This document shows, piece after piece, positions 4,351-47,279 of a stretch of 64,000 nucleotides of DNA. Numbering within the stretch: the stretch's first letter is position 1; each line of letters opens with the position of its first letter. The translations under genes and the position numbers were made by a program. Location of the stretch: assembly GCA_028718945.1 (NCBI GenBank), contig JAQUKT010000002.1, forward strand, positions 7,874 to 71,873, given 5' to 3'. The notes under the pieces were generated by a model. It made no database searches. It was not told the origin of the DNA and was given only the letters and a program-made list of their open reading frames with translations. Source of the DNA: Actinomycetota bacterium (GTDB taxonomy: Bacteria > Actinomycetota > Geothermincolia > Fen-727 > JAQUKT01).

Positions 4351-4351
4351 T

Positions 4352-7169: not shown

Positions 7170-7183
7170 GTTTCACGTGAAAC
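7170..7183. repeat. perfect 14-bp palindrome GTTTCACGTGAAAC, copy 2
   Basis: Identical to the 6641-6654 copy, 529 bp away. Confidence 0.8.
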
Positions 7184-8068: not shown

Positions 8069-8120
8069 AGGGATTGACAAGCCCTTGAGAGAATGAGGGA
8101 ATCTCTGTTGAGGGAGGGCA

Positions 8121-13133: not shown

Positions 13134-13145
13134 ACGGGGGCAGAG

Positions 13146-14489: not shown

Positions 14490-14506
14490 ACCAGCGTGGA
14501 GGGGAA

Positions 14507-15010: not shown

Positions 15011-15051
15011 CCCCGTGGGGAATTTCCATCACAAGAGGAGGGAATACGCGT

Positions 15052-16477: not shown

Positions 16478-16489
16478 GAGGTTTTTGTC

Positions 16490-18541: not shown

Positions 18542-18561
18542 TGAAGTTTAGAGGGTCGAAA

Positions 18562-22544: not shown

Positions 22545-22822
22545 AGTGACTGTGCTAGGTGGGGAGCTAGCGGTGCCCTGTACCCGCAATCCGCTATAGC
22601 GGGACCGAATTCCCGCCCGAGGCTGGAAGGAACCGGTACCCATGCTCCGGAAAGCGGTGATGAAGACCGGGTCCCACGCAACGGAAATTTGCGAACCCCG
22701 TCAGGTCCGGGAGGAAGCAGCGGTAAGCAAAATAATTCTGTGTGCCGTGGATAAACGTGGTTGGAGCTGGCTTCCGGGTCATAGTCCTGTTCCAAAGGTC
22801 GGAGGTGGGTGCACGGTCACTT
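22545..22822 (+). ncRNA. ffs: signal recognition particle RNA, long Bacillus-type (with Alu domain)
   Basis: Domain IV motif 'GUCAGGUCCGGGAGGAAGCAGCGGUAAG' at about 22699-22727. The 5' region 'GUGCUAGGUGGGGAGCUAGCGGUGCCCUGUACCCGCAAUCCGCUAUAGCGGG' closely matches the B. subtilis scRNA Alu domain. A terminal helix pairs 22546-22555 (GUGACUGUGC) with 22811-22820 (GCACGGUCAC). Conserved ffs-dnaX-ybaB-recR synteny. Confidence 0.8.
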
Positions 22823-33121: not shown

Positions 33122-35410
33122 TTAAGCTTTGATGGCATTTTCCTTGCTGCAAGTTTCGGGGTCTCGCATGCGCTCTGGTGCCTTGTAGCGAAGAAGCGAC
33201 TTGTTTATGGGTCCGAGTTTCTTGATTGCGTCAACCATGTTCTTTATTGTACTTGCGAATTTTTCTCCCTCGGAAGCTGAAATCCAGGCAAGTTCAAGCC
33301 TTTCGGGTTCGATTCCTAAGGCTTCGATATATTCTTTTAGCGCATTGTAGCGCTTTTCGGTCATTAGGTTCGCGGATATATAGTGGCAGTCTCCAATGTG
33401 GCATCCGGACATAAGCACGCCATCAGCGTTGTGCCTGAAGGCCTCTAAAACATAAAGCGGATCTATTCTTGCGGAACACATGAGTCTTATTATCCTTACA
33501 TTTGGAGGGTACTGCATGCGGGAAACCCCTGCATAGTCTGCGCCCGCGTACGAACACCAGTTGCAGGTAAATGCAAGGATCTGTGGCTCGAAGCCCTTTC
33601 CAGGTTTCGTTGGCTCCGGGAAAGCAGCCTTTATCTGCGCAAGTGTTTGGTCCTCCGTGAAATGCTGGGTTTTTATGGCAAGAGTGGGGCAGCCCGCCGC
33701 GCACGCTCCGCATCCTTTGCACAGTGCCGGATTTATTGATGAGACAAGTCTCATCTGTTCATTGATGACCATTTTTACAGCGCCAAACGGACACACCCAC
33801 TCACAGAAACCGCAACCGATGCAGGAATCCTCATCGACGCGTGAGGTTATTGCTTCAGTGCGAACGATTCCCTGCCTCATCGGATTGACCGCGTGAGAGG
33901 CGGCAGCATGAGCCTGTGCGACGCTCTCTGCAACATCTTTTGGTCCTTGGGCTGTTCCGCAGACGTATATGCCATCCGTTGCAAAGTCAACAGGTCTTAA
34001 CTTTGTGTGCGCTTCAAAAAAGAACTTATCCTGCCCAATTGGAACCCGCAAGTATTTTGAAAGAGAAAGACCGTCTTCTGTCTGGATTAGCGGGGTGGAA
34101 AGAACTACGAGGTCAGCGGGATAGGAAGCTTCCCTTTGAAGGAGGTCGAGGTATGTCCTTACCTCGAGTCGCCCATCTTTTTCCGCCACCTCGGGTATTT
34201 TTTCGGGATCAAATTTTCTGAACCTTATTCCTGCGGCTCGAGCTTTCCTGTACCATTCCTCCTGTATTACTCCATAGACTTCAATATCGTTATGAAGTAT
34301 GCTAACGCGCGCGTCGGGAAACTTTTCCTTGATGTTGAGCGCATTTTTTATCGCCACCATGCAGCAAATTCTGCTACAATACGAAACAAGCATGCCCCGG
34401 CTTCCCGCGCATTGTATCATCACAACATCGTGAAGAGCAGGAAGTCTGTCATCTAAAAGCATTTTCTCAAGCTCGCCCTGAGTGATGACATCTTTCAATT
34501 TTCCATATCCGTAAAGCCCTTCAGGCTTCAGTTCGGAAGAGCCGGACGCGACAATTATAGTTCCACACTTTATCGAGAAATCACCTTGCTTTGATGTAAT
34601 TTCAACCTCAAAATTTCCGAAGAATCCCTTGACTGACTTGATAAGCACATCGGTGTAAAGATGTACCTTGGGATTTGAGTTTATTCTTTCAATATAGCCT
34701 TTGATTAATCGCTTAGGATCCGCTCCTGTTGGGGTCAGATTATAAAGGGAGTTGAGCATCCCCCCTGGTTGTGATTCTTTCTCCAACAAGTGAACATCAT
34801 ATCCCTGTTCAGCGATTGAAAGGGCTGCGGTCATTCCGGAAATGCCCGCTCCTATTATGCATGATACAGGATTGATTTCTACAGAAATGTCTTCAAGACC
34901 CTCCAGATGAGAGACCCTCATCACGCTCATTCTTACAAGGTCTTTAGCCTTCTCGGTTGCCCTTTCCCAGTCGTGCATGTGCACCCATGAACACTGGTCT
35001 CTTATGTTTGCGAACTCGAAAAGATACTTGTTGAGCCCCGCGTCCTCGCATGCTTTTCGGAACAGGGGTTCATGTGTTCGAGGAGTGCAGGCGGCCACCA
35101 CCACTCTGTTGAGGTTGTGTTTTGAAATAGCTTCCTTGATTGAAGCGATACCGTCTTCTGCGCATGTATACAGGTTTCTCTTCACGTATTTCACATTGGG
35201 AAGAGTCTCTGCGTACTCTGCCACCTCTTCAACATCCAAGAAGCCCGCAATATTGGCACCGCAATGGCAAATAAAGACGCCAACTCTTGGTTCGGCCTTT
35301 TCCGGCTCAGTTGGTTTTTCTCTTGAAGGTTTTGCGGGTTTGCCCTGCGCACTCTTTACGGTAGCTCGGCTTCTCGCCACCTTTTCGGTGGCCGCCTTCA
35401 CTTCGCCCAA
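33122..35410 (-). CDS. HdrA-like flavoprotein (C-terminal-half type) fused to MvhD/FlpD domain (TTG start)
   Basis: 762 aa. Contains 'GVFICHCGANIAG', 'VVVAACTPRTHE...FANIRDQCSWVH', FAD motif 'CIIGAGISGMTAAL', two ferredoxin motifs 'CIGCGFCEWVCP' and 'CKGCGACAAGCP', and the MvhD domain 'ILAFTCNWCSYAGADYAGVSRMQYPPNVRIIRLMCSARIDP...SGCHIGDCHY'. Confidence 0.8.
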   Translation of the reverse strand: MGEVKAATEKVARSRATVKSAQGKPAKPSREKPTEPEKAEPRVGVFICHCGANIAGFLDVEEVAEYAETLPNVKYVKRNLYTCAEDGIASIKEAISKHNLNRVVVAACTPRTHEPLFRKACEDAGLNKYLFEFANIRDQCSWVHMHDWERATEKAKDLVRMSVMRVSHLEGLEDISVEINPVSCIIGAGISGMTAALSIAEQGYDVHLLEKESQPGGMLNSLYNLTPTGADPKRLIKGYIERINSNPKVHLYTDVLIKSVKGFFGNFEVEITSKQGDFSIKCGTIIVASGSSELKPEGLYGYGKLKDVITQGELEKMLLDDRLPALHDVVMIQCAGSRGMLVSYCSRICCMVAIKNALNIKEKFPDARVSILHNDIEVYGVIQEEWYRKARAAGIRFRKFDPEKIPEVAEKDGRLEVRTYLDLLQREASYPADLVVLSTPLIQTEDGLSLSKYLRVPIGQDKFFFEAHTKLRPVDFATDGIYVCGTAQGPKDVAESVAQAHAAASHAVNPMRQGIVRTEAITSRVDEDSCIGCGFCEWVCPFGAVKMVINEQMRLVSSINPALCKGCGACAAGCPTLAIKTQHFTEDQTLAQIKAAFPEPTKPGKGFEPQILAFTCNWCSYAGADYAGVSRMQYPPNVRIIRLMCSARIDPLYVLEAFRHNADGVLMSGCHIGDCHYISANLMTEKRYNALKEYIEALGIEPERLELAWISASEGEKFASTIKNMVDAIKKLGPINKSLLRYKAPERMRDPETCSKENAIKA

Positions 35411-35425
35411 CTGCTTTGTCCCCCC

Positions 35426-35569
35426 CTACTTCTTTGTCGGCTTCTTCGCAGCTTTCTTTGCCGGCTTCTTCGCAGCTTTCTTCGCAGCTTTCTTCGCAGC
35501 TTTCTTTGCCGGCTTCTTCGCAGCTTTCTTTGCCGGCTTCTTCGCAGCTTTCTTCTTTGCAGTTGCCAT
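35426..35569 (-). CDS. 47-aa Lys/Ala-repeat basic micro-protein (histone H1-like / HupB-tail-like AKKAAKKP repeats)
   Basis: ATG preceded by a strong RBS GGAGGTG (6-nt spacing). Translation MATAKKKAAKKPAKKAAKKPAKKAAKKAAKKAAKKPAKKAAKKPTKK. The TAG stop lies 15 nt before the hdrA-mvhD TTG start. The underlying DNA is a 24-nt-period tandem repeat. Not in the ORF track because it is under 60 aa. Confidence 0.5.
   Translation of the reverse strand: MATAKKKAAKKPAKKAAKKPAKKAAKKAAKKAAKKPAKKAAKKPTKK
35429..35566. repeat. tandem DNA repeat (period about 24 nt, about 5.5 copies) encoding AKKAAKKP units
   Basis: 'ggcttcttcgcagctttctttgcc' iterated. It produces spurious repetitive ORFs in other frames (FFAAFFAG, SCEEAGKE). 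Confidence 0.85.
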
Positions 35570-35579
35570 CTCCCACCTC

Positions 35580-36923
35580 CTATCTTTCCTTACCGACTTT
35601 TACCTCGACCTTAGCCCTGTTTTCTTCAATCTCGTGTGCAGCCCTATCTGCGGCTGCCCCTCCTTGTGTTACTGCATCTGTCACATCCATGGGGCGCGTG
35701 CATGCACCGGCTATGAAGACGCCGGGCACGTTTGTGTCCATTGGCGCAAGAAGATCATCTCGGGCCTTGAAAAACCCGAACTTGTCTGATTCTACACCAA
35801 GAGTTTTCGCAAGTTTTTCAATTCCCTTAGGCGGAACGAATGCCACTGATAGAACTACCATTTCAACTTCAAGCTTCTTAACGCCGCCTGATTCCGTATC
35901 ATCATACCAGATGTAAAGATTCTTTGTTTTTTCATCTTCTGTTATTTCACCTGGTCTTGCTCTTATGTACTTTATCTTATATTCATCCCTTCCTCTTCTT
36001 ATATATTCATCGAAACCTCTGCCGAATGCTCTTATATCTGTGTAAAAAATAAAGTTTTCGGTATCACCGTTGTGCATGTACGCAAGCATCGCGTCCTTTG
36101 TTGCATACATGCAGCATACTGAGCAACAATACGGATGACCAGACTTCAAATCCCTTGCGCCAACGCATTGAATATACGCGATTCTCTTAGGTCTTTCGCC
36201 ATCCGAACGGCGTGTGAGATTCCCCCCGGTTGGTCCACCGGCGTTTATTAGCCTTTCGTATTCCATGGAGTGAATAACGTTTTCAAAACGACCATAACCA
36301 TATTCAGTTACGGGTGTTGGGTCAAAGATGTCGAGCCCGGTTGCCACGATAATAGACCCGACGTTGAGGTTTATGATTTCATCCTTCATTTTGAAATCAA
36401 TTGCCTCTCGGGCACATGCGGTCAGACACTTTGACTTACACTTCCCCTTGGTGAATAAAAGACAGCTTTCAGGGTCAACAAGAGCGGCTCTCGGGACCGC
36501 CTGCGCGAATGGGATGTAAACCGCAGCTCGTTTGCCCAAACCCTCGTCCCACTCGTTTGGGATTCTATTTGAAAGCACACACTCTTCCGCACAGCTTCCG
36601 CATCCGGTACATTTACTCTCATCAATGTATCGTGAATGCTTTCTTACTCTCACACTAAAATTGCCAGACCTCCCCTGGAGTTTCTCCACTTCGGCATAAG
36701 TGATCACTTCTATTTTTGAATGATTGAAGCACGTTATCATTTTTGGGGCTAAAATGCATATCGAGCAATCGTTGGTAGGAAAGACCTTGTCGAGAAGTGC
36801 CATCCTTCCCCCGATTGACGGTTTTTTCTCAACAAGATATACATCATATCCCTTATCGCCGAGGTCAAGGGAAGCTTGAATTCCGCAAACACCACCGCCA
36901 ATCACCAGAACCGAGTCTGACAT
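35580..36923 (-). CDS. HdrA-like FAD-dependent oxidoreductase (N-terminal-half type with inserted ferredoxin domain)
   Basis: 447 aa. 'VLVIGGGVCGIQASLDLG' FAD motif, 'FPTNDCSICIL', inserted 4Fe-4S 'CTGCGSCAEEC', 'YIQCVGARD' and 'CCSVCCMYATK'. Homologous to residues 1-440 of the 1002-aa HdrA at 38685-41693. Confidence 0.8.
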   Translation of the reverse strand: MSDSVLVIGGGVCGIQASLDLGDKGYDVYLVEKKPSIGGRMALLDKVFPTNDCSICILAPKMITCFNHSKIEVITYAEVEKLQGRSGNFSVRVRKHSRYIDESKCTGCGSCAEECVLSNRIPNEWDEGLGKRAAVYIPFAQAVPRAALVDPESCLLFTKGKCKSKCLTACAREAIDFKMKDEIINLNVGSIIVATGLDIFDPTPVTEYGYGRFENVIHSMEYERLINAGGPTGGNLTRRSDGERPKRIAYIQCVGARDLKSGHPYCCSVCCMYATKDAMLAYMHNGDTENFIFYTDIRAFGRGFDEYIRRGRDEYKIKYIRARPGEITEDEKTKNLYIWYDDTESGGVKKLEVEMVVLSVAFVPPKGIEKLAKTLGVESDKFGFFKARDDLLAPMDTNVPGVFIAGACTRPMDVTDAVTQGGAAADRAAHEIEENRAKVEVKVGKER

Positions 36924-36929
36924 ATTATC

Positions 36930-38651
36930 TCACCCCTGTTTCTTCTTGACAGATTCCTGTGCTTTTGGACTCTTTTTTGCGGCTTTTTTCGTAGGAACGG
37001 GCTTTCCCTTCTTCTTTTCTGTTTTAGAGATTGGCTTGGCTTCTGACGTGGATTTTACGCCAGGAGCCTTCATTGCTTTGGCGATGATTGAGGTTATGTC
37101 ATGAACGTCGATGGCTGGCTTTTCCCTTTCGGTAGGGACCTTCCCCGAAAGCGCGCATCTGAAGTGAATCAGGCACTTTGGGCATGAGGTCAGAAGAGCG
37201 TCCGCGCCAGTCGAGCAAGCCTCCTCGAGCCGGTCAATCTGAATGCACTTTGATGTTGCGCCACAAAGTACCCAGGAACTGACACCACAGCATATTGCGT
37301 CGGCACCGGAGTGTTTCATCTCAACGAGTTCAACACCAGGTATCGAGTTTATGACCTTCCTTGGCGCCTCATATATCCCCATGTGACGACCGAGCCGACA
37401 GGGGTCCTGGTAAGTGACTTTCATTTCGAGAGTCTTGTTGAAAGAGATCTTTTTTTCATCAAGTAACTTGCTCGTGAGTTCCGTTATATGCATAACGTCA
37501 ATGTCCCAGTTCTTGATGACCCTCGGGTATTCGCGTGAAAAAGTGAGGTACCCTTCAGGACATGAAAAAACAACCCTTCTGACCCCTGCTTCTTTGATTG
37601 CTTTTGCATTCTTTTTTGCAAGTGTTTCGAAGGATTCGGTGTCGCCTGCCGCAAGAAGGTCATGACCGCAGCAGCATTCGTTTTCGAGCACAACTGGAGT
37701 GATTCCGGCAGCGTTGAGTATTGAGATGGTATTTTTTGCTATGTCAAGGGAACCAGGTCTTATGTACGAGTGTGAGATTTCATAATACGGCAGGCAGCCA
37801 ACAAAATACATTATGTCATTCTTGCTGCTGGCACTTCTTTTGATTCTCATCCCATCGGTAAAGGAAGTGCGGTTCTGGCGAATGCCTTCTGAAGCCATTA
37901 TTCTCATCCAGGAATACATGAGCCCTGATTTCGTTCCAACTTTATTATCCCTTATTTCCTTTGAGGCAACCCTTCGCTGGTAGATGAAGTCCGAGAATCG
38001 GACATCGAAGGGGCACCGTTCCTCGCACGTCGCGCAGGTAAGGCACTCCCATATCCCGTCGGTTTTTTCGAGGTCCGAAACAAGGTTTTCAAGTGAGTAT
38101 TCCACCAGTTTCCTTGGGCTGAACTCAGGGTTTCTCCTCGCAACGGGGCATGACGCGGTGCACTTCCCGCACTCAACGCAGAGCATGGCGTTGGTGCTTT
38201 CTATAGAGTCGTCGAGGGATGGTGCTTTCAAGACCCTTTGCCTGGCTTTCTTGAGAGGATTCGGACCGAGCTTCTTGAGAGCCTTGACGAAATCGGTGAT
38301 TTCTTCTGCAAACTGCTCCCCTTCATTTGCGTTGACCCACTTTATTCTCAATCTATCTGAACCGAGACCAAGAAGGTCGAGGAGCCTCCCGGTTGACTCG
38401 ACTCCCTCCTTTGCCCTCATATTGCCTGTTTTGTAGTGGCAGTCGGCTTCGTGACAACCACCGACCAAAACGCCATCAGCACCGCTTTCGAAGGCTTTAA
38501 GGATGAAGGCAGGTTCAATCCTGCCCGAGCACATGACGCGGATTATTCGTACATTTGCCGGATACTGGATTCTCGATACGCCAGCGTAGTCGGCGCCGGC
38601 ATATGCGCACCAGTTGCATGTGAACGCAATTATCCTTGGCTCAAAAGCCAA
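36930..38651 (-). CDS. MvhD-HdrC-HdrB fusion protein (MvhD domain + 2x[4Fe-4S] + two CCG domains) with Lys-rich C-terminal tail
   Basis: 573 aa. N-terminal MvhD 'IIAFTCNWCAYAGADYAGVSRIQYPANVRIIRVMCSGRIEP'. HdrC-like 'CVECGKCTASCP...CLTCATCEERCP'. HdrB-like CCG motifs 'CCCGHDLL' and 'CCGVSSWVLCG'. Tail 'KKKGKPVPTKKAAKKSPKAQESVKKKQG'. Confidence 0.8.
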   Translation of the reverse strand: MAFEPRIIAFTCNWCAYAGADYAGVSRIQYPANVRIIRVMCSGRIEPAFILKAFESGADGVLVGGCHEADCHYKTGNMRAKEGVESTGRLLDLLGLGSDRLRIKWVNANEGEQFAEEITDFVKALKKLGPNPLKKARQRVLKAPSLDDSIESTNAMLCVECGKCTASCPVARRNPEFSPRKLVEYSLENLVSDLEKTDGIWECLTCATCEERCPFDVRFSDFIYQRRVASKEIRDNKVGTKSGLMYSWMRIMASEGIRQNRTSFTDGMRIKRSASSKNDIMYFVGCLPYYEISHSYIRPGSLDIAKNTISILNAAGITPVVLENECCCGHDLLAAGDTESFETLAKKNAKAIKEAGVRRVVFSCPEGYLTFSREYPRVIKNWDIDVMHITELTSKLLDEKKISFNKTLEMKVTYQDPCRLGRHMGIYEAPRKVINSIPGVELVEMKHSGADAICCGVSSWVLCGATSKCIQIDRLEEACSTGADALLTSCPKCLIHFRCALSGKVPTEREKPAIDVHDITSIIAKAMKAPGVKSTSEAKPISKTEKKKGKPVPTKKAAKKSPKAQESVKKKQG

Positions 38652-38684
38652 CCGTCCTCCTTAGTCTTTGCGCAAACGAAAGCC

Positions 38685-41600
38685 TCATTTCACTGCTGAC
38701 CTTATCATCGCTTCGATTTGCTCATCCGTAAAGTGAGAAATTGTTATGGCGTCGCTCCAGCATGACACCGCGCACATGCCGCAGCCGACGCAAAGAGCCT
38801 CATTGACTTCGGCGACAGGAATTTTTGTACCATCGCTTTTGACACTTATGGCTCCGAATTCGCATGCGTCCTCGCAAGCACCGCAGCCCCGACATCTTTT
38901 CGGGTCAACTTTTGCTATCGCACCTTCACCGATGACATATTCTTTTGACAGGACTGTGATGGCTCTTCCTGCGGCACCGAGACCCTGGGAGATTGCTTCA
39001 CACGCAAGCTTTGGATGATGGCATGTTCCGGCGAGGAATATTCCCGCTGTCGAGAAATCGAGTGGTCTCAGTTTTACGTGGGCTTCAAGGAAGAAGCCGT
39101 CCTCATCGGTAGGTATCTTCATCATCTCGGAAAGGGCGACGTTCTCATCATCGGGGACAACCGGTGTGGAAAGAACAACTAAGTCAGTTTCTATTTCAAT
39201 CTCGTGGGGAACTTGAGGGCTATTGAGATTGACGGTTAAACCATTCTCTTCCTCCTTGATTTGCGGCGGTTCCTTGTCATCGTATCTTATGAACAGTATC
39301 CCTCGCTCTCTTGCTTTCCGATAGAGTTCTTCGTGAAGTGCGTAAACAACAATATCGCGGTAGAGAACAAAAACGTTTGCTCCTGTGTTTCTTTCCTTGA
39401 ATGCAATGGCGTTCATGAGGGCATGGATACAGCAAACGCGGCTGCAGTAAGGTCTCTCCTCGTTCCTCCCCTCGACGCATTGAATCATCACGACCGATTT
39501 TGCTTTTAGTGTGGGGAGTTTTTGCCTGAACTCTTTTTGTGTCATCACTTTTTGGCTCTTACCGAAGAGATAGGAGGATGGGATATGCTCTCTTCCTCCG
39601 GTTGCAACTATTACCGCGCCCGGCTTGATTTCTTTCAAGCCTTCCCCGGATTGAACGAGTGCCCTGAAATTTCCAATGTAGCCGGAGAAGTCAACGACTC
39701 TTGATGAAGTGTGAACGACCACGTTCCTTAGTTTCTTGAGTTCCGAAATCACAGACAGGATGCCCGTGCGGATGTCTTCTGTTTCCTCGATGCCAAGGTT
39801 AGCCGGAATGCTGTTGACGCCTCCACCCAGGTGTTCTTCTTTCTCAACGATGTGAGTTTTGAAACCCGATTTTGCAAGTACGAGCGCTGAGGAGATTCCC
39901 GCCGGACCGCCGCCTATTACAAGAGCTTCGTGGTTTACCTTTACCGGAAGTAGAGGGAGCGGCTCGAGCAACCTTGCTCTTGAGACTGACATCCCCACAA
40001 GGTCCTTTGCTTTCTCCGTTGCTCTTTCGGGCTCGAGGCTGTGAACCCACGAACACTGGTCGCGGATGTTCGCGAATTCAAGGAGGTAACGGTTCAAACC
40101 AGCCTCCCGAATTGTGTCTCTGAAAAGTTTTTCGTGAGTTCGGGGAGTGCATGCCGCCACGACTACCCTCGTGAGTTGGTGCTCATGAATTGCCTGCTTT
40201 ATTCTTTCGCAGGATTCCGATGAGCATGTATATGTGTTTTCCTCGACATATACCACATTCCCAAGAGTGCGAGCATATTCTGCGACGGCACCCGTATCTA
40301 CGAAGTTAGCGATGTTCTTCCCGCAATGGCAGACAAAGACGCCGATTCTTGGTTCCCTCACTTTTGTATCAGCTTCAGGTGGCAGTTCCTTTTCTTGAAT
40401 GAGTGTTCCGCGAGCCTCAGAGAGAATCGAGGAGCAATTGCCAGAAGCGCCCGCTGCCTGGGAAACAGTTTCCGGTATGTCCTTTGGACCAGTCGCTGAG
40501 CCACATGCGAATATCCCGGGCACTGAAGTTTCGGTAGGATTCTCCTGCTTGGTTTCGATGAAGCCGTATTGATTCAACTTTACGCCTGCTTTTTCGAGCG
40601 CGGTTATCGGGGAGGCTTTGAGCCCGACGGAAAGTGAAACGATGTCAAACTCATCTTCTTCCCATCCATCTTCCGTGAGGAACCGTATCCTCAAAGTATC
40701 CGGACCTGCGATTTCAACCGAGGGAATCTTGAATCTGGTAAATCTTATTCCGTACTCGTCTTCTGCTCTTCTTTTGAATCGTTCAAATCCCTTGCCAAAT
40801 GTTCGCATATCGATGTGGAATATGTGGCAGGCTATATCCGGGTCGTGTTCCTTGATAACTGTTGCCTGCTTTATTGCGTAGGTGCAGCAAACCCCGGAGC
40901 AGTAGGGATTGTGGAAAATGTCGCGAGAGCCGGCGCACTGGACGAAGGCAATTCTTTTTGCCGGTTTTCCATCCGATGGTCTTACTATTTTCCCCGCGTA
41001 CGGACCGCTTGCGCACATGATTCTTTCGAGTTGAATCGAGGATACTACATTCGGGTGTTCAGGGTGGTAGGGAGAAAGCTCCTTGATACTTGATGCATGA
41101 GCTCCGGTGGCAGCGACTATCGAACCCACCTCGATTTTCTTGGGTTCCGGTTTCTGGTCGAAGTCTATCGCTTTGGCGGTGCATGCTTCCTGGCACGGAG
41201 CCTTGCACTTCCCCTTCGTGAACTTGAGGCAGGCATTTGTATCAATGAGAGCAATGCGAGGGACGCTCTGGGCGAAGGGGATATAAATTGCACTCCTTTT
41301 TGAAAGACCGGCGTCGAATTCCGATGGGATTCTCTCGGAGAGAACGCATGCTTCTGAACATGCGCCACAGCCGGTGCATAACTCGGTTGAAACGAAGCGA
41401 GGATTTTGAATATATTCAACTGCGAAGTCCCCGGGACCGCCTTTGATTTCTTTGATTTGGGCAAGAGTGATTATCTCTATGTTCGGGTGCTGGCTTGCCT
41501 CCACCAGTTTTGGAGAAAGGATGCACATTGAGCAGTCGTTGGTAGGGAATGTCTTGTCTAACATTGCCATCAGGCCACCTATGGATGGACTGCTTTCAAG

Positions 41601-41693
41601 AATGTAAGCCTCAAAGCCGCTCTCTGCTACATCGAGCGCTGCTTCGATCCCGCCTATTCCTCCACCGACTACGAGGACAGAGCCCTTTTTCAT
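38685..41693 (-). CDS. tandem (double) HdrA-like flavoprotein, 1002 aa
   Basis: Two FAD-binding units ('VLVVGGGIGGIEAALDVA' and 'ALVIGGGPAGISSALVLA'). Inserted ferredoxin 'CTGCGACSEAC', Trx-like 'GVFVCHCGKNIANF', and C-terminal 2x[4Fe-4S] 'CRGCGACEDACEFG...CVGCGMCAVSC'. Confidence 0.85.
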   Translation of the reverse strand: MKKGSVLVVGGGIGGIEAALDVAESGFEAYILESSPSIGGLMAMLDKTFPTNDCSMCILSPKLVEASQHPNIEIITLAQIKEIKGGPGDFAVEYIQNPRFVSTELCTGCGACSEACVLSERIPSEFDAGLSKRSAIYIPFAQSVPRIALIDTNACLKFTKGKCKAPCQEACTAKAIDFDQKPEPKKIEVGSIVAATGAHASSIKELSPYHPEHPNVVSSIQLERIMCASGPYAGKIVRPSDGKPAKRIAFVQCAGSRDIFHNPYCSGVCCTYAIKQATVIKEHDPDIACHIFHIDMRTFGKGFERFKRRAEDEYGIRFTRFKIPSVEIAGPDTLRIRFLTEDGWEEDEFDIVSLSVGLKASPITALEKAGVKLNQYGFIETKQENPTETSVPGIFACGSATGPKDIPETVSQAAGASGNCSSILSEARGTLIQEKELPPEADTKVREPRIGVFVCHCGKNIANFVDTGAVAEYARTLGNVVYVEENTYTCSSESCERIKQAIHEHQLTRVVVAACTPRTHEKLFRDTIREAGLNRYLLEFANIRDQCSWVHSLEPERATEKAKDLVGMSVSRARLLEPLPLLPVKVNHEALVIGGGPAGISSALVLAKSGFKTHIVEKEEHLGGGVNSIPANLGIEETEDIRTGILSVISELKKLRNVVVHTSSRVVDFSGYIGNFRALVQSGEGLKEIKPGAVIVATGGREHIPSSYLFGKSQKVMTQKEFRQKLPTLKAKSVVMIQCVEGRNEERPYCSRVCCIHALMNAIAFKERNTGANVFVLYRDIVVYALHEELYRKARERGILFIRYDDKEPPQIKEEENGLTVNLNSPQVPHEIEIETDLVVLSTPVVPDDENVALSEMMKIPTDEDGFFLEAHVKLRPLDFSTAGIFLAGTCHHPKLACEAISQGLGAAGRAITVLSKEYVIGEGAIAKVDPKRCRGCGACEDACEFGAISVKSDGTKIPVAEVNEALCVGCGMCAVSCWSDAITISHFTDEQIEAMIRSAVK

Positions 41694-41726
41694 GCCGCGC
41701 TGCTCCTTTGAGTCATTGGTTTCTGC

Positions 41727-42662
41727 CTAAAGCACTCCTGCTTCGGATCGCCTGACGAGTCTTTCAAATGAATCGTCAACTCTTTTCTGAATTTCCTTTA
41801 TGTCTTCCTCTTTGAGATGGCGAAAGCGACCCTGTGACCTTAGGTATTCGAGAACTGGTTTTCTTTTTTCCATGAAATAGTTCAATTTGAGTTTTCCGTC
41901 TATGATTTCATAGAGTGGGAAGACGCCTGTTTCGACCGCAAGCCTTCCCATTTCAACGGTAAGTTTGCTGTCGAACCTCCACCCGGTAGGGCAAGGAGTC
42001 AGGATGTGAAGATAGGTTGGTCCTTCTGTTTCGAATGCTATTTTTGCTTTGCGCAGAAGGTCCATGGGGAAACTTGGGCAGCATGTCGCAAGATAGGGAA
42101 TTTCATGAGCTGCAACGATCATGGGAAGATTCTTTTTGTTTGTAACCTGCCCTATTGATTCCTTTCCCGCAGGGCTTGTTGTGGTGCTTGCGCCGTACGG
42201 GGTTGCGGATGAGCGCTGGATGCCGGTATTCATATATGCCTCATTGTCTGTGCAGATGTATGTGAAATCGTGAAATCTCTCGAAAGCGCCAGAGAGAGCC
42301 TGAAGACCGATGTCTGCGGTTCCTCCATCACCGGCAAGGGCGATAATTGTTGTCCGCCCCTGCTTGTAGCGCTTCTTGTTCCTTAGTGTCTTGATTGCCG
42401 ATTCAACTCCGGATGCCACCGCAGCGGCATTTTCGAATGCAACGTGTATCCAGGGAACTCGCCATGCGGTTTGCGGATAGGGGCTTGATATGATTTCAAC
42501 ACAGCCTGTCGCGCTGCATACAATTGTATCCGGACCTGCCGCTTTCATAAATTGCCTGATGGCAAGAGCTTCTCCACAACCTTGGCAGCCACGGTTGCCC
42601 TCGGCGAAATATTCCTGCGGAGGAATAAGCCTGGGGATGAAGTCGAAGTTGCTCTCCGTCAT
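41727..42662 (-). CDS. porB: 2-oxoacid:ferredoxin oxidoreductase beta subunit (TPP-binding; PorB/VorB type)
   Basis: 311 aa with 'GCQGCGE' and the TPP-binding 'GDGGTADIG' motif. Fourth gene of a porG-D-A-B order block. Confidence 0.85.
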   Translation of the reverse strand: MTESNFDFIPRLIPPQEYFAEGNRGCQGCGEALAIRQFMKAAGPDTIVCSATGCVEIISSPYPQTAWRVPWIHVAFENAAAVASGVESAIKTLRNKKRYKQGRTTIIALAGDGGTADIGLQALSGAFERFHDFTYICTDNEAYMNTGIQRSSATPYGASTTTSPAGKESIGQVTNKKNLPMIVAAHEIPYLATCCPSFPMDLLRKAKIAFETEGPTYLHILTPCPTGWRFDSKLTVEMGRLAVETGVFPLYEIIDGKLKLNYFMEKRKPVLEYLRSQGRFRHLKEEDIKEIQKRVDDSFERLVRRSEAGVL

Positions 42663-43837
42663 TCCCTCACTCCTATCATGAAGTACTCCTCCTCAAAACC
42701 CTCTGAAAGCGCTCGTTCGGCAATTTCTACGATTTGTGTGAAATCTTCAATTGTGACATCTCTACCGCCCAGTCCTGCGATGAAGCCTATGGTTAGCGGC
42801 TTTTTCTCGAGGGGATACAATGCACTTCTGAGCTCTGAGCACATGGGCCCGCCCGGCCCCCCGAAGGAAAGGCATCGGTCAACTACGGCTACGGCTTTTG
42901 CATTTTGAACGGCATCCCTTATGTCATTGAAGGGGTATGGTCTCCATAGCCTGGTTGTAAGAAGCCCGACTTTCTTGCCAGACTTTCGCATCTTGCTCAC
43001 AGCGACTTTTGCGGTTCCGGAAATCGAGCCCGCAAGATTGATGATGATTTCAGCATCTTCTGTCATGAATTTCTCGACGGGAGAATATTTTCTGCCAAAC
43101 TTCAAAGCGAAATCTTCCCAAACCTCGAGAATCACGGGATAAGCCCCGAGAATCGCTTCGTTCTGCTGCTTTTTTATCTCTGTATAGATTTCCGGAAAAC
43201 CAACCGGACCAATGGATACGGGGTTTTCGGGGTCGAGTTTCAATTTCGGATTGAACGGGGGGAGAAAGGAATCAATGTCCTCCTGGCTCTCGACGAACAG
43301 CGGTTCAATAACATGAGAGAGTGTAAATCCGTCAATGTTTACGATTGAGGGAGTGAGCACCCTTTCATCTTCAGCCCACTTGAACGACTGTATGGTGAGG
43401 TCGAAGGATTCCTGCCCTGTTTCGGCAAAGACCTGTATCCAACCGCAGTCTCTTTCGGCCATTATGTCACTCTGGTCTCCCCAGATTGAAAGAGGTGCCG
43501 ATAATGCTCTGTTCGCAACAGCCATCACAACGGGGAGTCGGAGACCAGAAGCAATGAAGAGAACCTCGTGCATGAGCGCGAGGCCCTGTGACGCTGTAGC
43601 GGTGAAGGTGCGCGCGCCTGCAGCGGAGGCGCCGCAGCAAGCGCTCATTGCGGAATGTTCGGATTCAACCATGATAAACTCTGAGTCGAGTTCTCCATCG
43701 GCTACCATGCGAGCCAGCTCTTCTACGATATGTGTTTGTGGCGTAATCGGATAAGCCGCAATTACATCCGGCCTGCACAGCTTTGCCGCTTCGCTTATTG
43801 CAAAGGAAACCTCGAGTCCGACTCTTTTGCCCATCAC
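42659..43837 (-). CDS. porA: 2-oxoacid:ferredoxin oxidoreductase alpha subunit
   Basis: 392 aa with PorA-like N-terminal 'AYPITPQT' and 'ESEHSAMSACCGASAAGARTFTATASQGL'. Confidence 0.85.
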   Translation of the reverse strand: MMGKRVGLEVSFAISEAAKLCRPDVIAAYPITPQTHIVEELARMVADGELDSEFIMVESEHSAMSACCGASAAGARTFTATASQGLALMHEVLFIASGLRLPVVMAVANRALSAPLSIWGDQSDIMAERDCGWIQVFAETGQESFDLTIQSFKWAEDERVLTPSIVNIDGFTLSHVIEPLFVESQEDIDSFLPPFNPKLKLDPENPVSIGPVGFPEIYTEIKKQQNEAILGAYPVILEVWEDFALKFGRKYSPVEKFMTEDAEIIINLAGSISGTAKVAVSKMRKSGKKVGLLTTRLWRPYPFNDIRDAVQNAKAVAVVDRCLSFGGPGGPMCSELRSALYPLEKKPLTIGFIAGLGGRDVTIEDFTQIVEIAERALSEGFEEEYFMIGVRE

Positions 43838-44121
43838 TTCTCCTCTTCAACCATCTTTATCGCGTTTCTCGGACATTCGTGGGCGCATATCCCGCATCCC
43901 TTGCAGTGTTCATAATCGACCTCATAGTATCCCTCTTCGTTGATGAACAGCGAGGATTCGGGGCAGAGAATCCAGCATAGTCCGCATTTGTTACAGGCTT
44001 CCGGGTCGCGCAGTGGCTTTTCGCTTCTCCATTCCCCAGTTTTTTGTTGCGTCGCGCTTCCCGGCTCAGAAATTGCAGCCGCAAGCGGGAAGGCTTTCCA
44101 TTTTGGAAGATCAGTCATCAC
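43834..44121 (-). CDS. porD: 2-oxoacid:ferredoxin oxidoreductase delta subunit (2x[4Fe-4S] ferredoxin)
   Basis: 95 aa with 'CNKCGLCWILCP' and 'CKGCGICAHECP'. Confidence 0.8.
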   Translation of the reverse strand: MMTDLPKWKAFPLAAAISEPGSATQQKTGEWRSEKPLRDPEACNKCGLCWILCPESSLFINEEGYYEVDYEHCKGCGICAHECPRNAIKMVEEEK

Positions 44122-44693
44122 TCACCCTCAAGGATCGTTTCGCTGTAAGCTCGCTTCATAGCATTTACGTTTTTTTCTGCGACTTGAGGAAACATCTCTT
44201 CAACTTGTTTTGCCAGCGAATCAATTGAAACCAGGCCGGAAACTCTCGAGAGAGCTCCCATCATTGTTGTGTTGGTTATGGGCCTCCCAATTTCCTCGTG
44301 TGCTATTTTGCTTGCGTTAACAATACAGACTTTCTGAGATATCTTGAATTCCTGCTTTACTTCCGAAATCGTTTTGCGCGTGTTGACTATAAGCGTGCCG
44401 TCTGGAGAAAGACCCTCGGTGGTATCAACCGCACTCATTACCGAGGGGTCGAGAACAACAACAATATCCGGACTCGTTATGCCGGACCTTATGAAGATGA
44501 ATTCATCGGATATCCTCGTGAACGCCATCACGGGGGCTCCCCGCCTTTCAGGTCCAAAACTCGGGAAAGCCTGGGCGTATTTGCCATCTTCTATTGCTGC
44601 AAGTGCAAACATCTGGGCCGAGGCAACGGCTCCCTGGCCGCCTCTCCCGTGCCATCTTATCTCGGTAATATTTTGAGCGCTTAAGTCTTCCAT
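44118..44693 (-). CDS. porG: 2-oxoacid:ferredoxin oxidoreductase gamma subunit
   Basis: 191 aa with 'IRWHGRGGQGAVASAQMFALAA', typical of the PorG/KorC gamma subunit. Confidence 0.8.
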   Translation of the reverse strand: MEDLSAQNITEIRWHGRGGQGAVASAQMFALAAIEDGKYAQAFPSFGPERRGAPVMAFTRISDEFIFIRSGITSPDIVVVLDPSVMSAVDTTEGLSPDGTLIVNTRKTISEVKQEFKISQKVCIVNASKIAHEEIGRPITNTTMMGALSRVSGLVSIDSLAKQVEEMFPQVAEKNVNAMKRAYSETILEGE

Positions 44694-44696
44694 GGT

Positions 44697-45569
44697 TTAC
44701 CCGATTTTTTTCATAAGACCATCGACTCCCACCCTGTGAGCCTGAAGCCCGAGAGCGGAAGGGTCGTTGCCGAGGGAGATTGCAAGCAACTGGCAATAAT
44801 GTAGCACAGGAATCTGATAGTCTTTTTTGAGCTTGCGTTTGATTTCAAGTTGACCAAAGTCAAACTGCTCGAAACAGGCGGGGCAAACTACGACAATTAC
44901 ATCTGCGCCGGAATCTTTCATGGCCTTGCATTTGTTGCTTGCCATTGAAAGAGAGAGCTCAGGGGAGCGAACCGCATTTCCACAGCAGTCCGTGTAACCA
45001 TCGTACTTCACGACCTCACAGGAGAGAGCCTCAACCAAGTGCTCGAGAACTTCTGGATTGAATGGATCGTCGAATGAGACCAAGCGGGAAGGTCTCAAGA
45101 GATGGCAGCCATGATGAATCGCAACTTTCAGACCTTTGAGCGGCTTTCTTACAAGTGATGATATTCTTTCCGCGCCGACCTCTGCGAGGCACTCTGCAAC
45201 ATGCTTGACCTTCGCTTTTCCATTCAAAGAAAGCCCGAGCGGTGAAAGCTTTTCTGAGATAGTTTGTTTTTCGCCGTTTTCTTTGAGGATTTGGGAGGCT
45301 TCCTTGAGTGTCGAATAACACCCGTTGCAAAGTGTAAGCAAATCGCGGTTTCCCCTTTCGGCAAGAGCGATATTTCTGGAAGCAAGAGTAAGCCAGTCTT
45401 CGAGGGAGGAAGCTTTGATATTCCATGGTTCGGGGCAACAGGAGAAACCTCTGACATCTATCAGGTTTATTCCGCATTGTGGTAGAGCAATACGCGCCGC
45501 AAGTTCTATTTGCGGATGTCTCAGAGGTATCATGCATCCTGGAAAGAAAGTAAAATCCGTCCCTTTCAA
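44697..45569 (-). CDS. hdrB: HdrB-like protein with two CCG (Cys-rich) domains
   Basis: 290 aa. Two CX(n)CCX(n)CXXC units ('...SCCPEPW...CNGC' and '...DCCGNAV...CPAC'). Confidence 0.8.
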   Translation of the reverse strand: MKGTDFTFFPGCMIPLRHPQIELAARIALPQCGINLIDVRGFSCCPEPWNIKASSLEDWLTLASRNIALAERGNRDLLTLCNGCYSTLKEASQILKENGEKQTISEKLSPLGLSLNGKAKVKHVAECLAEVGAERISSLVRKPLKGLKVAIHHGCHLLRPSRLVSFDDPFNPEVLEHLVEALSCEVVKYDGYTDCCGNAVRSPELSLSMASNKCKAMKDSGADVIVVVCPACFEQFDFGQLEIKRKLKKDYQIPVLHYCQLLAISLGNDPSALGLQAHRVGVDGLMKKIG

Positions 45570-45572
45570 TTG

Positions 45573-46028
45573 TCACTCCATGATTTTTTTCACTTGTTCG
45601 GCGACCGTTGAATCAACTTCAGGCAGTCCAAGTTCTCTCCTTCTTTTCTTGATTGCTTCAGAAAGAGGGATGAATGTTCCGTTTTCGATTACATGAACAC
45701 GCGAGTCTTTTATTTCTTCGGGTGAATTTCCAGACTTATACGCCACGTTCTTGAGCGCTGTTATGACTTCAACGGGGTGTGTTCCCTGGGGACAGAACTC
45801 GTAGCATTTGTAACATGTGGCACATTCCCAGATTATGGAATCCTTGTCGATTAGTTCCCCTAAACCAAGCGACGCGGAAAGCACTATTTCGGCTGGATTG
45901 AAGCGAGAGTCAAGGCGAGCTGTCGGACATTCAGATACACACGCATTACATTGATAGCAGTGGTCGATTTCTCCTGCTTTTTCAACCTCACTCAGGTTTT
46001 TCTTGAAATCAGGGTTTACTGAAACCAA
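45573..46028 (-). CDS. hdrC: HdrC-like 2x[4Fe-4S] ferredoxin subunit
   Basis: 151 aa with 'CYQCNACVSECP' and 'CATCYKCYEFCP'. First gene of the hdr-por operon. Confidence 0.8.
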   Translation of the reverse strand: MVSVNPDFKKNLSEVEKAGEIDHCYQCNACVSECPTARLDSRFNPAEIVLSASLGLGELIDKDSIIWECATCYKCYEFCPQGTHPVEVITALKNVAYKSGNSPEEIKDSRVHVIENGTFIPLSEAIKKRRRELGLPEVDSTVAEQVKKIME

Positions 46029-46076
46029 GGTGACGCCTCATCGAAAGAATTTTTTCAGCAAAAAATTATAGGCGTC

Positions 46077-46106
46077 ATTATATTCAAATCAATGGTCAAA
46101 CGTCAA
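46077..46106 (-). promoter_or_regulatory. candidate sigma70-type promoter of the hdrC-hdrB-porGDAB-hdrA... operon (TTGACG-18-TATAAT on minus strand)
   Basis: Minus-strand -35 TTGACG (plus coordinates 46101-46106), 18-nt spacer, -10 TATAAT (46077-46082). About 50 nt upstream of the hdrC start, with palindromes in the leader. Confidence 0.5.
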
Positions 46107-46178: not shown

Positions 46179-47279
46179 TTATTCCGATTCAATCTGCTCA
46201 TAAGTTGGTATCCACTCGTTCTCCATATACCACCTGACGGTTTCAAACCATCCCTTCCTCAAGTCCGGATACCTGAGCTTGTAACCGAGTTTTTTGAGTT
46301 TCTCATTGGAGAAGTAGTATTCTCCTCTACCGAATGAAGTAAATCCCGGGTCGAACCTCGGGCTCATTGCTGGAACAAGACGATGCTCAGTTATGACTTT
46401 ATCCCACTGACTCTGGAAGAATTCGGTAACCTTCGTGAAGAAGATTTGTGGAAAATGGGAAATAGCACTTGCGCCGATTGCAATCAATTTGTTTGCGGAC
46501 GGTAATACTCTTTTTGTCTCAATTCCCACTGAGTTTAGCAGTACTTCAATCAATCCTCCGTATGGCATCGCCGAGTCATCTGAAACGTTATATGCCTGAC
46601 CAATTGCTTCGTCTTTTTCAAGAAGGAATGCGGCGGCACCCACGATGTCCTCCACATGAACGAGATTTGCATTGAAGCCATCCTTGGGAAGGGGGACCAT
46701 TTTCAGCCCTGTTTCTTTCAGCAGAACCGGGAGTCCAAGGAACAGACCCATTACATACACACATCTTGGTCCGTAGATTGTTGTTGGTCTGATAACGGTT
46801 ACCGGAAGGCCGTGAAGCTTGTGATAGCGAAGGGCGGCCTGCTCGCCGAACAGCTTGGTTATTGAATAAAGATTTATCGGCTTTTGGGGATAGTTCTCGT
46901 AAACGGGCGAATATTCCGGCGGGCCGTATGTGTCGCATGTGGAAAAATGCACGAAGTGTTTGACGCCTTTTGAAAGAGCCGCTTCACATGTCGTGACAGT
47001 GACGTGGTAGTTCGCAAGTTCATACTCCGGGCGCGTCATAAAATAATTCATGCGTGCTGCAGTATGCACGACCCTATCAACCCCGTCCATAGCCTTGAGT
47101 GCTTCTTTGAGTTTCAGAAGATTAGCAGGAACTATCTCGCAGTTCTGGCGTTCGATGGCGGAATAATCAGCCTCGGGAAGGTCGGTCGCGCGAACCTCGT
47201 ATCCTTTTTTCTGAAGCTCCTCGATCATAAATGGGCCTACGAACCCACACGCACCTGTAACGAGTACCTTTTCTGCCAT
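46179..47279 (-). CDS. NAD-dependent epimerase/dehydratase (extended SDR family)
   Basis: 366 aa with 'VLVTGACGFVGPFMIEEL' Rossmann motif and a YxxxK catalytic motif. Confidence 0.85.
   Translation of the reverse strand: MAEKVLVTGACGFVGPFMIEELQKKGYEVRATDLPEADYSAIERQNCEIVPANLLKLKEALKAMDGVDRVVHTAARMNYFMTRPEYELANYHVTVTTCEAALSKGVKHFVHFSTCDTYGPPEYSPVYENYPQKPINLYSITKLFGEQAALRYHKLHGLPVTVIRPTTIYGPRCVYVMGLFLGLPVLLKETGLKMVPLPKDGFNANLVHVEDIVGAAAFLLEKDEAIGQAYNVSDDSAMPYGGLIEVLLNSVGIETKRVLPSANKLIAIGASAISHFPQIFFTKVTEFFQSQWDKVITEHRLVPAMSPRFDPGFTSFGRGEYYFSNEKLKKLGYKLRYPDLRKGWFETVRWYMENEWIPTYEQIESE

Follow-up and report, generated by a model that had tools for sequence, protein, structure and literature searches.

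Flavin-based electron bifurcation by heterodisulfide reductase (Hdr) is known from methanogens, in which the HdrABC-MvhAGD complex (PDB 5ODC) combines flavin adenine dinucleotide (FAD) and the HA1-HA6 motifs with a di-cluster HdrC, the noncubane CCG motifs of HdrB and a [2Fe-2S] site in MvhD. The path that electrons take in Mvh-Hdr-Fmd runs FAD' -> HA4' -> HdrB on one branch and FAD' -> HA3 -> HA5'/HA6' on the other, and the Hdr-Fmd supercomplexes of methanogens channel the low-potential electrons to a CO2-fixing enzyme, with pyruvate:ferredoxin oxidoreductase (PFOR) named as a possible further acceptor. In this study, we analyzed a window of 64,000 nucleotides (nt) from a bacterium of the Geothermincolia (Actinomycetota; contig JAQUKT010000002.1, positions 7,874 to 71,873), the window being the whole stretch of DNA considered, and focused on a cluster of eleven genes, the hdr-por cluster, in which the genes of a four-subunit 2-oxoacid:ferredoxin oxidoreductase (Por) are embedded between hdr-type genes. 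Reduced ferredoxin and pyruvate synthesis stand at the thermodynamic edge of anaerobic life, and both the use of the many Hdr-like genes in non-methanogenic bacteria and the disulfide substrate of their products are long-standing questions.

Other described or predicted systems come close to parts of this arrangement. Tandem or fused HdrA proteins of anaerobic methanotrophic (ANME) archaea and of the Moorella MetFV-Hdr complex have undergone complementary losses, which were taken as a sign of asymmetric heterodimers (Chadwick et al. 2022). HdrA2B2C2 of Methanosarcina acetivorans takes ferredoxin electrons from acetyl-CoA-level oxidation and reduces a disulfide (Yan et al. 2017), and Por-Bfu, a predicted class of the BfuABC family, has been proposed to support pyruvate synthesis under energy limitation (Schut et al. 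2022). Four-subunit Por, HdrA in tandem or heterodimeric form, and fusions of the HdrA-MvhD and MvhD-HdrCB types were all known before, and the present finding is limited in surprise because HdrA is recognized as highly modular. What appears to be new is an Hdr-type bifurcating complex paired with Por as partner enzyme. An earlier reading of the window, made from the sequence without database searches (the sequence-only reading), had described it as a fusion of two Hdr-like modules with a four-subunit 2-oxoacid:ferredoxin oxidoreductase. We found no characterized or named Hdr-Por system in the openly searchable literature, a scope that leaves out many subscription papers, including an HdrA review. 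The nearest idea was the predicted Por-Bfu. In papers on the host lineage, por and hdr appear as separate items, and a metVF-hdr cluster is the only one taken up.

The hdr-por cluster compared with described systems

All eleven open reading frames (ORFs) of the cluster lie on the minus strand within 33122-46028, each at the position that the sequence-only reading had given for it. Their features are listed below in order of transcription, beginning with a promoter-like site and with protein lengths in amino acids (aa).

46077..46106, minus strand: promoter-like site, TTGACG-18 nt-TATAAT, 11/12 consensus matches, the top score of the region scan
45573..46028, minus strand: hdrC, 151 aa; Pfam Fer4_8; TIGR03290 (HdrC) 102.6 bits, under the cut-off of 160
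44697..45569, minus strand: hdrB, 290 aa; Pfam CCG 89 bits; TIGR03288 287 bits, under the cut-off of 345
44118..44693, minus strand: porG, gamma subunit, 191 aa; PF01558; TIGR02175 229.5 bits (cut-off 81); PRK08534 225.0 bits (cut-off 225)
43834..44121, minus strand: porD, delta subunit, 95 aa, ferredoxin-like with 2x[4Fe-4S]; TIGR02179 106.7 bits (cut-off 60)
42659..43837, minus strand: porA, alpha subunit, 392 aa; POR_N and PFOR_II; PorA_Arch 509 bits, under the cut-off of 550
41727..42662, minus strand: porB, beta subunit, 311 aa, thiamine pyrophosphate (TPP)-binding; NF008819 (pyruvate synthase PorB) 428 bits, cut-off 405
38685..41693, minus strand: tandem hdrA'A, 1002 aa; NF040770 (HdrA2) 894.6 bits, under the cut-off of 1100
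36930..38651, minus strand: mvhD-hdrC-hdrB (HdrD-like) fusion, 573 aa; FlpD 176 bits, CCG and Fer4_8
35580..36923, minus strand: hdrA', 447 aa; Pfam and NCBIfam matches and alignment to M. wolfeii HdrA
35426..35569, minus strand: AKK-repeat micro-ORF, 47 aa; 24-nt tandem repeat, 5.2 copies, 91% matches (Tandem repeat finder)
33122..35410, minus strand: hdrA-mvhD fusion of HdrA2 type, 762 aa; NF040770 740.9 bits (cut-off 1100); FlpD 176 bits

The spacers from hdrC to hdrA-mvhD measure 3, 3, -4, -4, -4, 33, 33, 6, 10 and 15 nt; porG starts 3 nt past the hdrB stop codon, and the por genes overlap by 4 nt. The sequence-only reading had described a thirteen-gene operon with gaps of 40 nt or less throughout, which also took in lysC and asd downstream. 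These two genes come after gaps of 94 and 107 nt, and their position is taken by an acetate-CoA ligase alpha gene in the more distant relative L083 (loci used for comparison carry L numbers), so that the unit comprises eleven genes rather than thirteen; membership of lysC-asd was ruled out by the 94-nt gap with its weak promoter-like site and by the different gene in L083. The single candidate promoter that had been placed ahead of hdrC agrees with the listed site, which precedes the hdrC start codon (a TTG at 46028) by about 50 nt, and a TATAAT-like -10 element is kept at the same distance from the hdrC start in most related loci (L001, L003, L004, L006-L009 and L089). Over the whole region, promoter-like matches were in total not above chance. 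That the eleven genes are co-expressed as one redox machine is a proposal that we make with some reserve, as falling a little below probable. A perfect 8-bp inverted repeat (AATTTTTT-GCTG-AAAAAATT, 46048-46067) is located just downstream of the hdrC -10 box and may be an operator, its conservation in relatives not being obvious.

The domain assignments of the sequence-only reading were borne out by Pfam, NCBIfam and PDB sequence searches, which confirmed the FAD, cluster and ferredoxin domains of HdrA and the CCG, HdrC and MvhD domains of the remaining Hdr-type proteins, and agreed on PorGDAB. Por was also, as had been stated there, the only substrate-converting partner encoded in the cluster, where the domain searches showed no hydrogenase or formate dehydrogenase (FDH).

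The four HdrA modules encoded by the three hdrA-type genes were aligned to M. wolfeii HdrA, the sequence of which was rebuilt from the printed PDB-match alignment. The FAD-binding GxGxxG motif of a thioredoxin-reductase-like core is present in all four (VVGGGIGG, VIGGGPAG, VIGGGVCG and IIGAGISG, with Pyr_redox_2/FAD matches), as are the core [4Fe-4S] cluster cysteines toward HdrC (QCxGSRD...YCSxxCC). The other features are divided between two kinds of module. Module A' (residues 1-435 of HdrA'A, and the 447-aa protein) carries Cys194/Cys197 (PTNDCSxCIL) and an inserted 2x[4Fe-4S] ferredoxin domain, and lacks the N-terminal cluster domain and the C-terminal ferredoxin domain. Module A (residues 436-1002 of HdrA'A, and the 762-aa protein) carries an N-terminal iron-sulfur (FeS) domain, namely the CHCG... 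cluster domain found at residues 436-570 of HdrA'A and also in the 762-aa protein, together with the C-terminal ferredoxin domain, and lacks Cys194/Cys197 and the inserted ferredoxin domain. No single module holds both the inserted and the C-terminal ferredoxin domain, that is, none is a complete canonical HdrA, and the combination of the N-terminal cluster domain with the completing Cys197 of the partner protomer is satisfied only across A'/A pairs.

As judged from this alignment, the four modules make up two complementary A'/A pairs, one fused (HdrA'A) and one split (HdrA' plus HdrA-MvhD), which carry the published signature of asymmetric HdrA heterodimers, and the MvhD-HdrCB fusion could tether both A'/A units in one assembly. 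The sequence-only reading had counted three HdrA paralogs and had seen in the redundancy of HdrBC and HdrA a sign of two distinct complexes; the count has to be changed to four HdrA-type flavin modules, and their complementary pairing undercuts the conclusion drawn from it. Its terms N-terminal-half and C-terminal-half hdrA are apt as descriptions relative to the tandem protein but misleading for the 762-aa protein, which contains the N-terminal FeS domain, the FAD core, the C-terminal ferredoxin domain and MvhD and is without only the inserted ferredoxin domain and Cys197. The split hdrA was rejected as a pseudogene, the ORFs being intact and 62-77% identical among relatives (64-77% for the 447-aa HdrA' and its orthologues in related loci) and the same split being present in Thermoplasmata and Desulfobacterota.

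HdrC contains two CX2CX2CX3C [4Fe-4S] motifs (Cys 24/27/30/34 and 69/72/75/79). HdrB aligns from end to end with its M. wolfeii counterpart (5odc_B, E = 1.8e-70), and both of its CCG motifs (CXnCCXnCXXC) are complete (C12..C44C45..C81xxC84 and C155..C195C196..C229xxC232). In the 573-aa fusion, the CNWC...MCS...GCHxxDCHY cysteines of the MvhD part align with those of 5odc_D (E = 1.7e-47), and the HdrCB part has its nearest solved relative in 9ojn_A ('iron-sulfur-binding reductase', E = 3.5e-33); the HdrB part is HdrD-like, its first CCG motif lacking the last Cys (C364-P-E-G) and its second being complete. Both MvhD domains of the cluster match PF02662 (175.9 and 176.4 bits, cut-off 22.3). The match of HdrA'A to HdrA (5odc and 8rvu, E ~1e-181) is made up of three aligned stretches. 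The NCBIfam equivalog cut-offs, however, were missed by HdrB and HdrC in this non-methanogenic bacterium and also by the HdrA proteins, for all three of which HdrA2 was the best-scoring NCBIfam family (894.6, 529.3 and 740.9 vs 1100; HdrA, NF041778, 651 vs 1400).

Among the Por proteins, PorA has as its top PDB match 9bt4_B, the alpha subunit of a four-subunit PFOR (E = 3.9e-108), and PorD scored 109.7 bits against its equivalog model (cut-off 120). By their family matches these proteins certainly belong to the archaeal-type four-subunit pyruvate/2-ketoisovalerate subfamily, and pyruvate, rather than another 2-oxoacid, is the likely substrate. In its subunits and in their gene order, porG-D-A-B, the locus agrees with archaeal-type PorABDG (PDB 9BT4), from which it differs in that the por genes are embedded between hdr genes and that PorA falls under the equivalog cut-off.

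Compared with the methanogen complex, the cluster has the same FAD, HA1-HA6, HdrC di-cluster, HdrB CCG and MvhD [2Fe-2S] features, and it is proposed here to resemble the Mvh/Fdh-Hdr-Fmd supercomplexes in wiring low-potential electrons directly into a CO2-fixing enzyme. It differs in that the host is a bacterium without coenzyme M/coenzyme B metabolism, that HdrA occurs in asymmetric A'/A pairs and not as a homodimer, that no hydrogenase, FDH or polyferredoxin is encoded in the cluster, that the partner is Por and not Fmd, and that all equivalog cut-offs for Hdr are missed. With the HdrA of ANME archaea and Moorella it shares the complementary loss of the N-terminal domain and Cys197, modules that are fused or adjacent, and non-hydrogenase partners, whereas the order of the fusion is reversed (truncated module first), the partner is Por instead of FdhAB-like proteins or MetFV, and there are two pairs per operon. 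HdrA2B2C2 likewise has an HdrA-MvhD fusion and belongs to the best-scoring family, but HdrA2 is a complete single module, while the fusion here is without Cys197 and the inserted domain and the scores of 741-895 bits stay below 1100.

Por-Bfu resembles the cluster in having four Por subunits in one operon with an electron-bifurcating module. That module, however, is a NuoE/NuoF-like flavin mononucleotide (FMN)-FeS unit with NAD(H) evident, whereas here an unrelated HdrA FAD is combined with thiol/disulfide sites and no NAD(P)-binding module; no Complex1_51K or 2Fe-2S_thioredx domain was found in the cluster by Pfam, both being present in L086. The class II benzoyl-CoA reductase BamBCDEFGHI is similar at the domain level, with a tandem HdrA-like BamE, MvhD-like and HdrD-like subunits, a non-hydrogenase catalytic module and low-potential chemistry, but the window is without AOR-family (BamB) or NuoEFG-like (BamGHI) genes and the catalytic partner is Por; L095 and L171 add AOR-family and ferredoxin genes. 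The sHdr system is organized as hdrC1B1A-hyp-hdrC2B2 with LbpA, has a short HdrA without ferredoxin domains, and has lbpA, dsrE and tusA as neighbours. The HdrA modules of the cluster match sHdrA (6tjr_A) at 1.7e-31 vs ~1e-181 for methanogen HdrA, and no lipoate-binding or sulfur-carrier genes were found in the window.

Conservation and recurrence of the hdr-por linkage

The nearest relatives are Ca. Anoxymicrobium and Ca. Anoxymicrobiaceae, of the class Ca. Geothermincolia. The complete order hdrC-hdrB-porGDAB-hdrA'A-mvhD·hdrCB-hdrA'-(micro-ORF)-hdrA·mvhD was found in at least 12 related Actinomycetota loci, including L001-L009 and L081/L082 (55-80% identity per protein), L089 (PorA 63% identical) and L083, a more distant Actinomycetota metagenome-assembled genome (HdrA'A 50% and PorA 59% identical). 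Recurrence of the order at protein identities of 50-80% places the arrangement beyond chance. In five of the relatives (L002, at 1975-5025, L003, L004, L006 and L009) a second porGDAB paralogue, about 46% identical and nearest to archaeal PorA/PorB, lies directly upstream of hdrC, where the window holds a gene for an NAD-dependent epimerase/dehydratase (46179-47279).

Outside this clade, por lies within 10 kb of none of 70 other tandem-HdrA loci, which come from WOR-3, Thermoplasmata, Bathyarchaeia, Desulfobacterota, Bacillota and other groups. The hdrA'A-mvhD-hdrC-hdrB core is joined to the small and large subunits of a [NiFe] hydrogenase on a Bathyarchaeia contig (L084, 10001-17283), to an FdhB/FdhA-like pair adjoining Wood-Ljungdahl genes in L087 (8611-16572), and to FeS proteins, a PyrK-like protein and an HdrD-like protein in L088; by these gene neighbourhoods the partner modules of the core are exchangeable. 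The block hdrA'A-mvhD·hdrCB-hdrA'-hdrA·mvhD occurs without any partner in L013, L058 and L072, and it is present without por in Thermoplasmata and Desulfobacterota. Since double-Hdr blocks without Por exist elsewhere, the por genes would have been added to a modular double-Hdr cluster that was there before them.

Outside the clade, the closest orthologues of Por were found in three settings: stand-alone, as in Thermosulfurimonas marina (60-61% identical to the Por of the window); adjoining NuoE/NuoF genes; or linked to hdr in other orders. The second setting is that of L086 (9135-15247), where NuoE-like, NuoF-like and FeS genes come after Por (PorA 61% identical), as in the predicted Por-Bfu type. 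In the third, two further arrangements were recognized. The order AOR-Fd-hdrC-hdrB-porGDAB, with no hdrA nearby, is present in L090 (3177-10159), L091 (4137-11300) and L092, on contigs of 68-69% GC, and the HdrC/B of L090 (as in L091) share no more than 27-30% identity with their counterparts in the window. An interleaved order, AOR-Fd-hdrA'A-porA-AOR'-Fd-hdrC-hdrB-porG-porD-porB, is present in L093, L094, L095 (64-9681) and L171 (4778-16139) at 34-38% GC; there the hdr genes separate porA from porGDB, the AOR-like protein has 430-441 aa, and the cluster of L095 is followed by a NarI-like gene and an FeS protein. The interleaved cluster may encode a Bam-like Por/AOR-Hdr machine. The co-occurrence of hdr and por noted in the sequence-only reading is therefore a conserved feature of at least 12 related loci that also appears in other gene orders in unrelated lineages, and nothing else in this analysis speaks as strongly for Por and Hdr working together as this appearance in three gene orders, of which one is interleaved.

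Possible electron flow between Por and Hdr

We tentatively propose that PorGDAB is electrically connected to the double asymmetric Hdr flavin module, with Por on its low-potential branch, and we regard such a connection as possible, if not quite probable. Each unit would contain one A' (with FAD, HA4, Cys197 and the inserted ferredoxin domain with its two clusters), one HdrA (with a 'shuttle' cluster domain at the N-terminus and an input ferredoxin domain at the C-terminus), one MvhD [2Fe-2S] adaptor and one HdrC/HdrB-type thiol/disulfide site, the thiol/disulfide modules being HdrC plus HdrB, and the MvhD-HdrCB fusion. Because the module anatomy can be combined with the electron path of Mvh-Hdr-Fmd, only the A' flavin is predicted to have a complete bifurcation path, in which a high-potential branch would lead from HA4 through HdrC to HdrB and a low-potential branch from the shuttle cluster to the inserted ferredoxin domain. 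Por may dock via the ferredoxin-like PorD at this low-potential 'ferredoxin port' of A', so that free ferredoxin would be bypassed. During growth on C1 compounds or acetate, mid-potential electrons would enter at MvhD from a donor encoded elsewhere and be bifurcated to a disulfide and to Por, which would act as a pyruvate synthase and carboxylate acetyl-CoA reductively, much as Hdr of methanogens supplies formylmethanofuran dehydrogenase (Fmd); during pyruvate oxidation the same wiring would run in reverse.

As to direction, papers on the Anoxymicrobiaceae/Geothermincolia report that the host lineage carries the Wood-Ljungdahl pathway, and it needs a pyruvate synthase for that reason. This, the precedent of Hdr-Fmd and the anabolic Por-Bfu proposal would tilt the balance slightly towards pyruvate synthesis. 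In its most specific form the proposal amounts to a bacterial Hdr-pyruvate synthase supercomplex, in which an asymmetric, heterodimer-type HdrA flavin would pass bifurcated electrons of very low potential to Por's FeS chain with no free ferredoxin in between and drive the reductive carboxylation of acetyl-CoA, as an anabolic counterpart of the methanogen Hdr-Fmd and a member of a wider, undescribed Por/AOR-Hdr family in at least three unrelated lineages; in this full form we consider it rather doubtful.

Several points weigh against Por as the low-potential acceptor of Hdr. A flavin-based bifurcating Hdr complex works with three redox partners, namely a mid-potential donor, a high-potential acceptor and a low-potential acceptor. 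Neither an electron-donor module nor a candidate disulfide carrier is encoded in the cluster; no donor module was recognized anywhere in the window, so far as the sequence can be read, which offers only the Por couple and thiol/disulfide-type sites. No HdrB-Por fusion was present among ten long HdrB homologues inspected from a search of 1.84 billion representatives, these being HdrB-HdrC or HdrC-HdrB fusions, TPR-HdrB proteins or a CCG match only. No docking insertions specific to por-linked HdrA'A were found when 11 linked sequences were compared with 91 unlinked ones, the differences being indels of 3-5 residues and 17 clade-specific residues that are not separable from phylogeny. The enzymes beside hdrA-mvhD in comparable clusters (hydrogenase, FDH) are donors, and Por might by analogy be one as well; the hdrA-less arrangement of L090 and L091 is thermodynamically sensible only with pyruvate as donor; the acetate-CoA ligase (ADP-forming) gene by the L083 cluster fits a catabolic route from pyruvate to acetate; and HdrA2B2C2, the best-matching characterized family, reduces its disulfide with reduced ferredoxin. 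Beyond gene content, moreover, the proposal draws entirely on comparative genomics of uncultured organisms.

The same wiring could carry the opposite flow, with Por as the donor: electrons from the oxidation of pyruvate or another 2-oxoacid (~-500 mV) would pass via PorD into Hdr, where a disulfide would be reduced at the HdrB or HdrD-like site, comparable to the ferredoxin-dependent activity of Methanosarcina HdrA2B2C2, and the flavin might bifurcate some of them to an acceptor below the potential of ferredoxin. The operon would then be self-contained, holding donor and Hdr together as do the Mvh-, Fdh- and Flx-Hdr clusters and L084 and L087, and the best score of HdrA-MvhD against HdrA2, the acetate-CoA ligase alpha gene adjoining the L083 cluster and the second Por paralogue in tandem in several relatives all favour this direction. 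It is less clear what would be gained, for pyruvate already reduces ferredoxin directly, and the transfer of electrons at -500 mV to a disulfide is wasteful unless a third, very low-potential acceptor takes part, none of which is encoded in the window. That L090 and L091 link Por with AOR, a ferredoxin and HdrC/B-like proteins but have no HdrA also speaks for Por as donor, although the low identity of the L090 HdrC/B to those of the window reduces the bearing of this linkage. In L095 and L171 the interleaving of two AOR-family genes with por and hdr recalls class II benzoyl-CoA reductase, whose Hdr-like modules attain potentials lower than that of ferredoxin; Por-Bfu, the one published proposal that joins Por to a bifurcating module, is on the other hand anabolic. 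We consider a donor role for Por somewhat unlikely.

A purely metabolic link, in which Por and Hdr are separate enzymes of one operon that draw on a common soluble low-potential ferredoxin pool, appears improbable to us. The lack of Por-Hdr fusions among the ten long homologues and of specific insertions in por-linked HdrA'A is what would be expected of such a link; Por is also a standard four-subunit enzyme with a close stand-alone counterpart in Thermosulfurimonas marina, and the double-Hdr block does without por in Thermoplasmata and Desulfobacterota. Against this, por lies inside the hdr genes and not beside them, with a gap of 3 nt between hdrB and porG, and the insertion is kept down to 50% HdrA'A identity. 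Linkage in several gene orders, including an interleaved one, is moreover typical of subunits of one complex, and methanogen Hdr hard-wires its low-potential output to the partner enzyme. Finally, two co-expressed complexes, a six-subunit HdrCB-PorGDAB 'pyruvate:disulfide oxidoreductase' and a double-HdrA complex of HdrA'A, MvhD-HdrCB, HdrA' and HdrA-MvhD (or something else again), are very unlikely, since, although hdrC-hdrB-porGDAB occurs without hdrA in L090 and L091 and the second block without por in L013, L058 and L072, the double-HdrA complex would hold two HdrA'A units with one HdrCB module, hdrC-hdrB stands directly ahead of hdrA'A across many phyla, which suggests that por was inserted into an existing hdrCB-hdrA'A unit, and the L090 HdrC/B are distant.

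Under the proposed electrical connection of Por to Hdr, metabolic reconstructions of Wood-Ljungdahl Actinomycetota (Geothermincolia), in which por and hdr are now annotated as unrelated functions, would change, and the pairing may reveal by what means these bacteria form or oxidize pyruvate when the redox potential is very low. The eleven-gene operon is a concrete, expressible target on which Hdr bifurcation hard-wired to a 2-oxoacid synthase outside methanogens, the working of an HdrA heterodimer and the thiol/disulfide couple can be addressed.

Small sequence features and neighbouring genes

The micro-ORF between hdrA' and hdrA-mvhD encodes (AAKKPAKK)n, stops at a TAG and is in frame with the next gene by chance. 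Small ORFs that open with MAA(A)KK and code for 23 to about 100 aa are found at the same place in L002, L003, L005, L006 and L081, and an equivalent is absent from L007, L083 and L013. The relation of its reading frame to those of hdrA' and hdrA-mvhD varies among L002, L003, L005 and L081, and a conserved recoding was rejected for this reason; selenocysteine or pyrrolysine insertion, read-through and frameshifting that would join the micro-ORF to hdrA-mvhD were considered and discarded in view of the TAG stop, the varying frame and the missing ORF in L007 and L083. Its product, if one is made, is probably a variable lysine/alanine-rich peptide or linker remnant. Low-complexity stretches rich in K, A and P are also present in the lysine-rich C-terminal tail of MvhD-HdrCB (36930-37060) and in the N-terminal extension with which the 762-aa HdrA-MvhD starts (35290-35410); basic tails of this kind might bind acidic ferredoxin-like partners.

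An Rfam search of the window gave a single match, the bacterial large signal-recognition-particle (SRP) RNA (22550-22816, 196 bits), located immediately upstream of dnaX, and neither a leader regulatory RNA nor a lysine riboswitch before lysC was detected by it. In the window dnaX and recR lie about 8 kb from the hdr-por cluster; the L090 cluster follows directly after dnaX-ybaB-recR, and L171 has dnaX-ybaB upstream. The neighbourhood of the chromosomal origin is at 793-9750 (dnaN, dnaA, yidC, jag, rsmG/gidB, parA and parB), the sign of the GC skew flips between 1-2000 and 2001-4000, and the hdr-por cluster is about 30-45 kb from the origin genes. A chemotaxis set (cheR, MCP, cheB, a cheA-cheW fusion and cheC/cheX) at 12279-19696 fits the flagellar motility genes reported from basal anaerobic actinobacterial classes. 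On the other side of the cluster are a glycerate kinase gene (48282-49511) and a gene for an archaeal-type bifunctional fructose-1,6-bisphosphate aldolase/phosphatase (57327-58421; FBPase_3, 599 bits), which are gluconeogenic and consistent with a host making its sugars from pyruvate.

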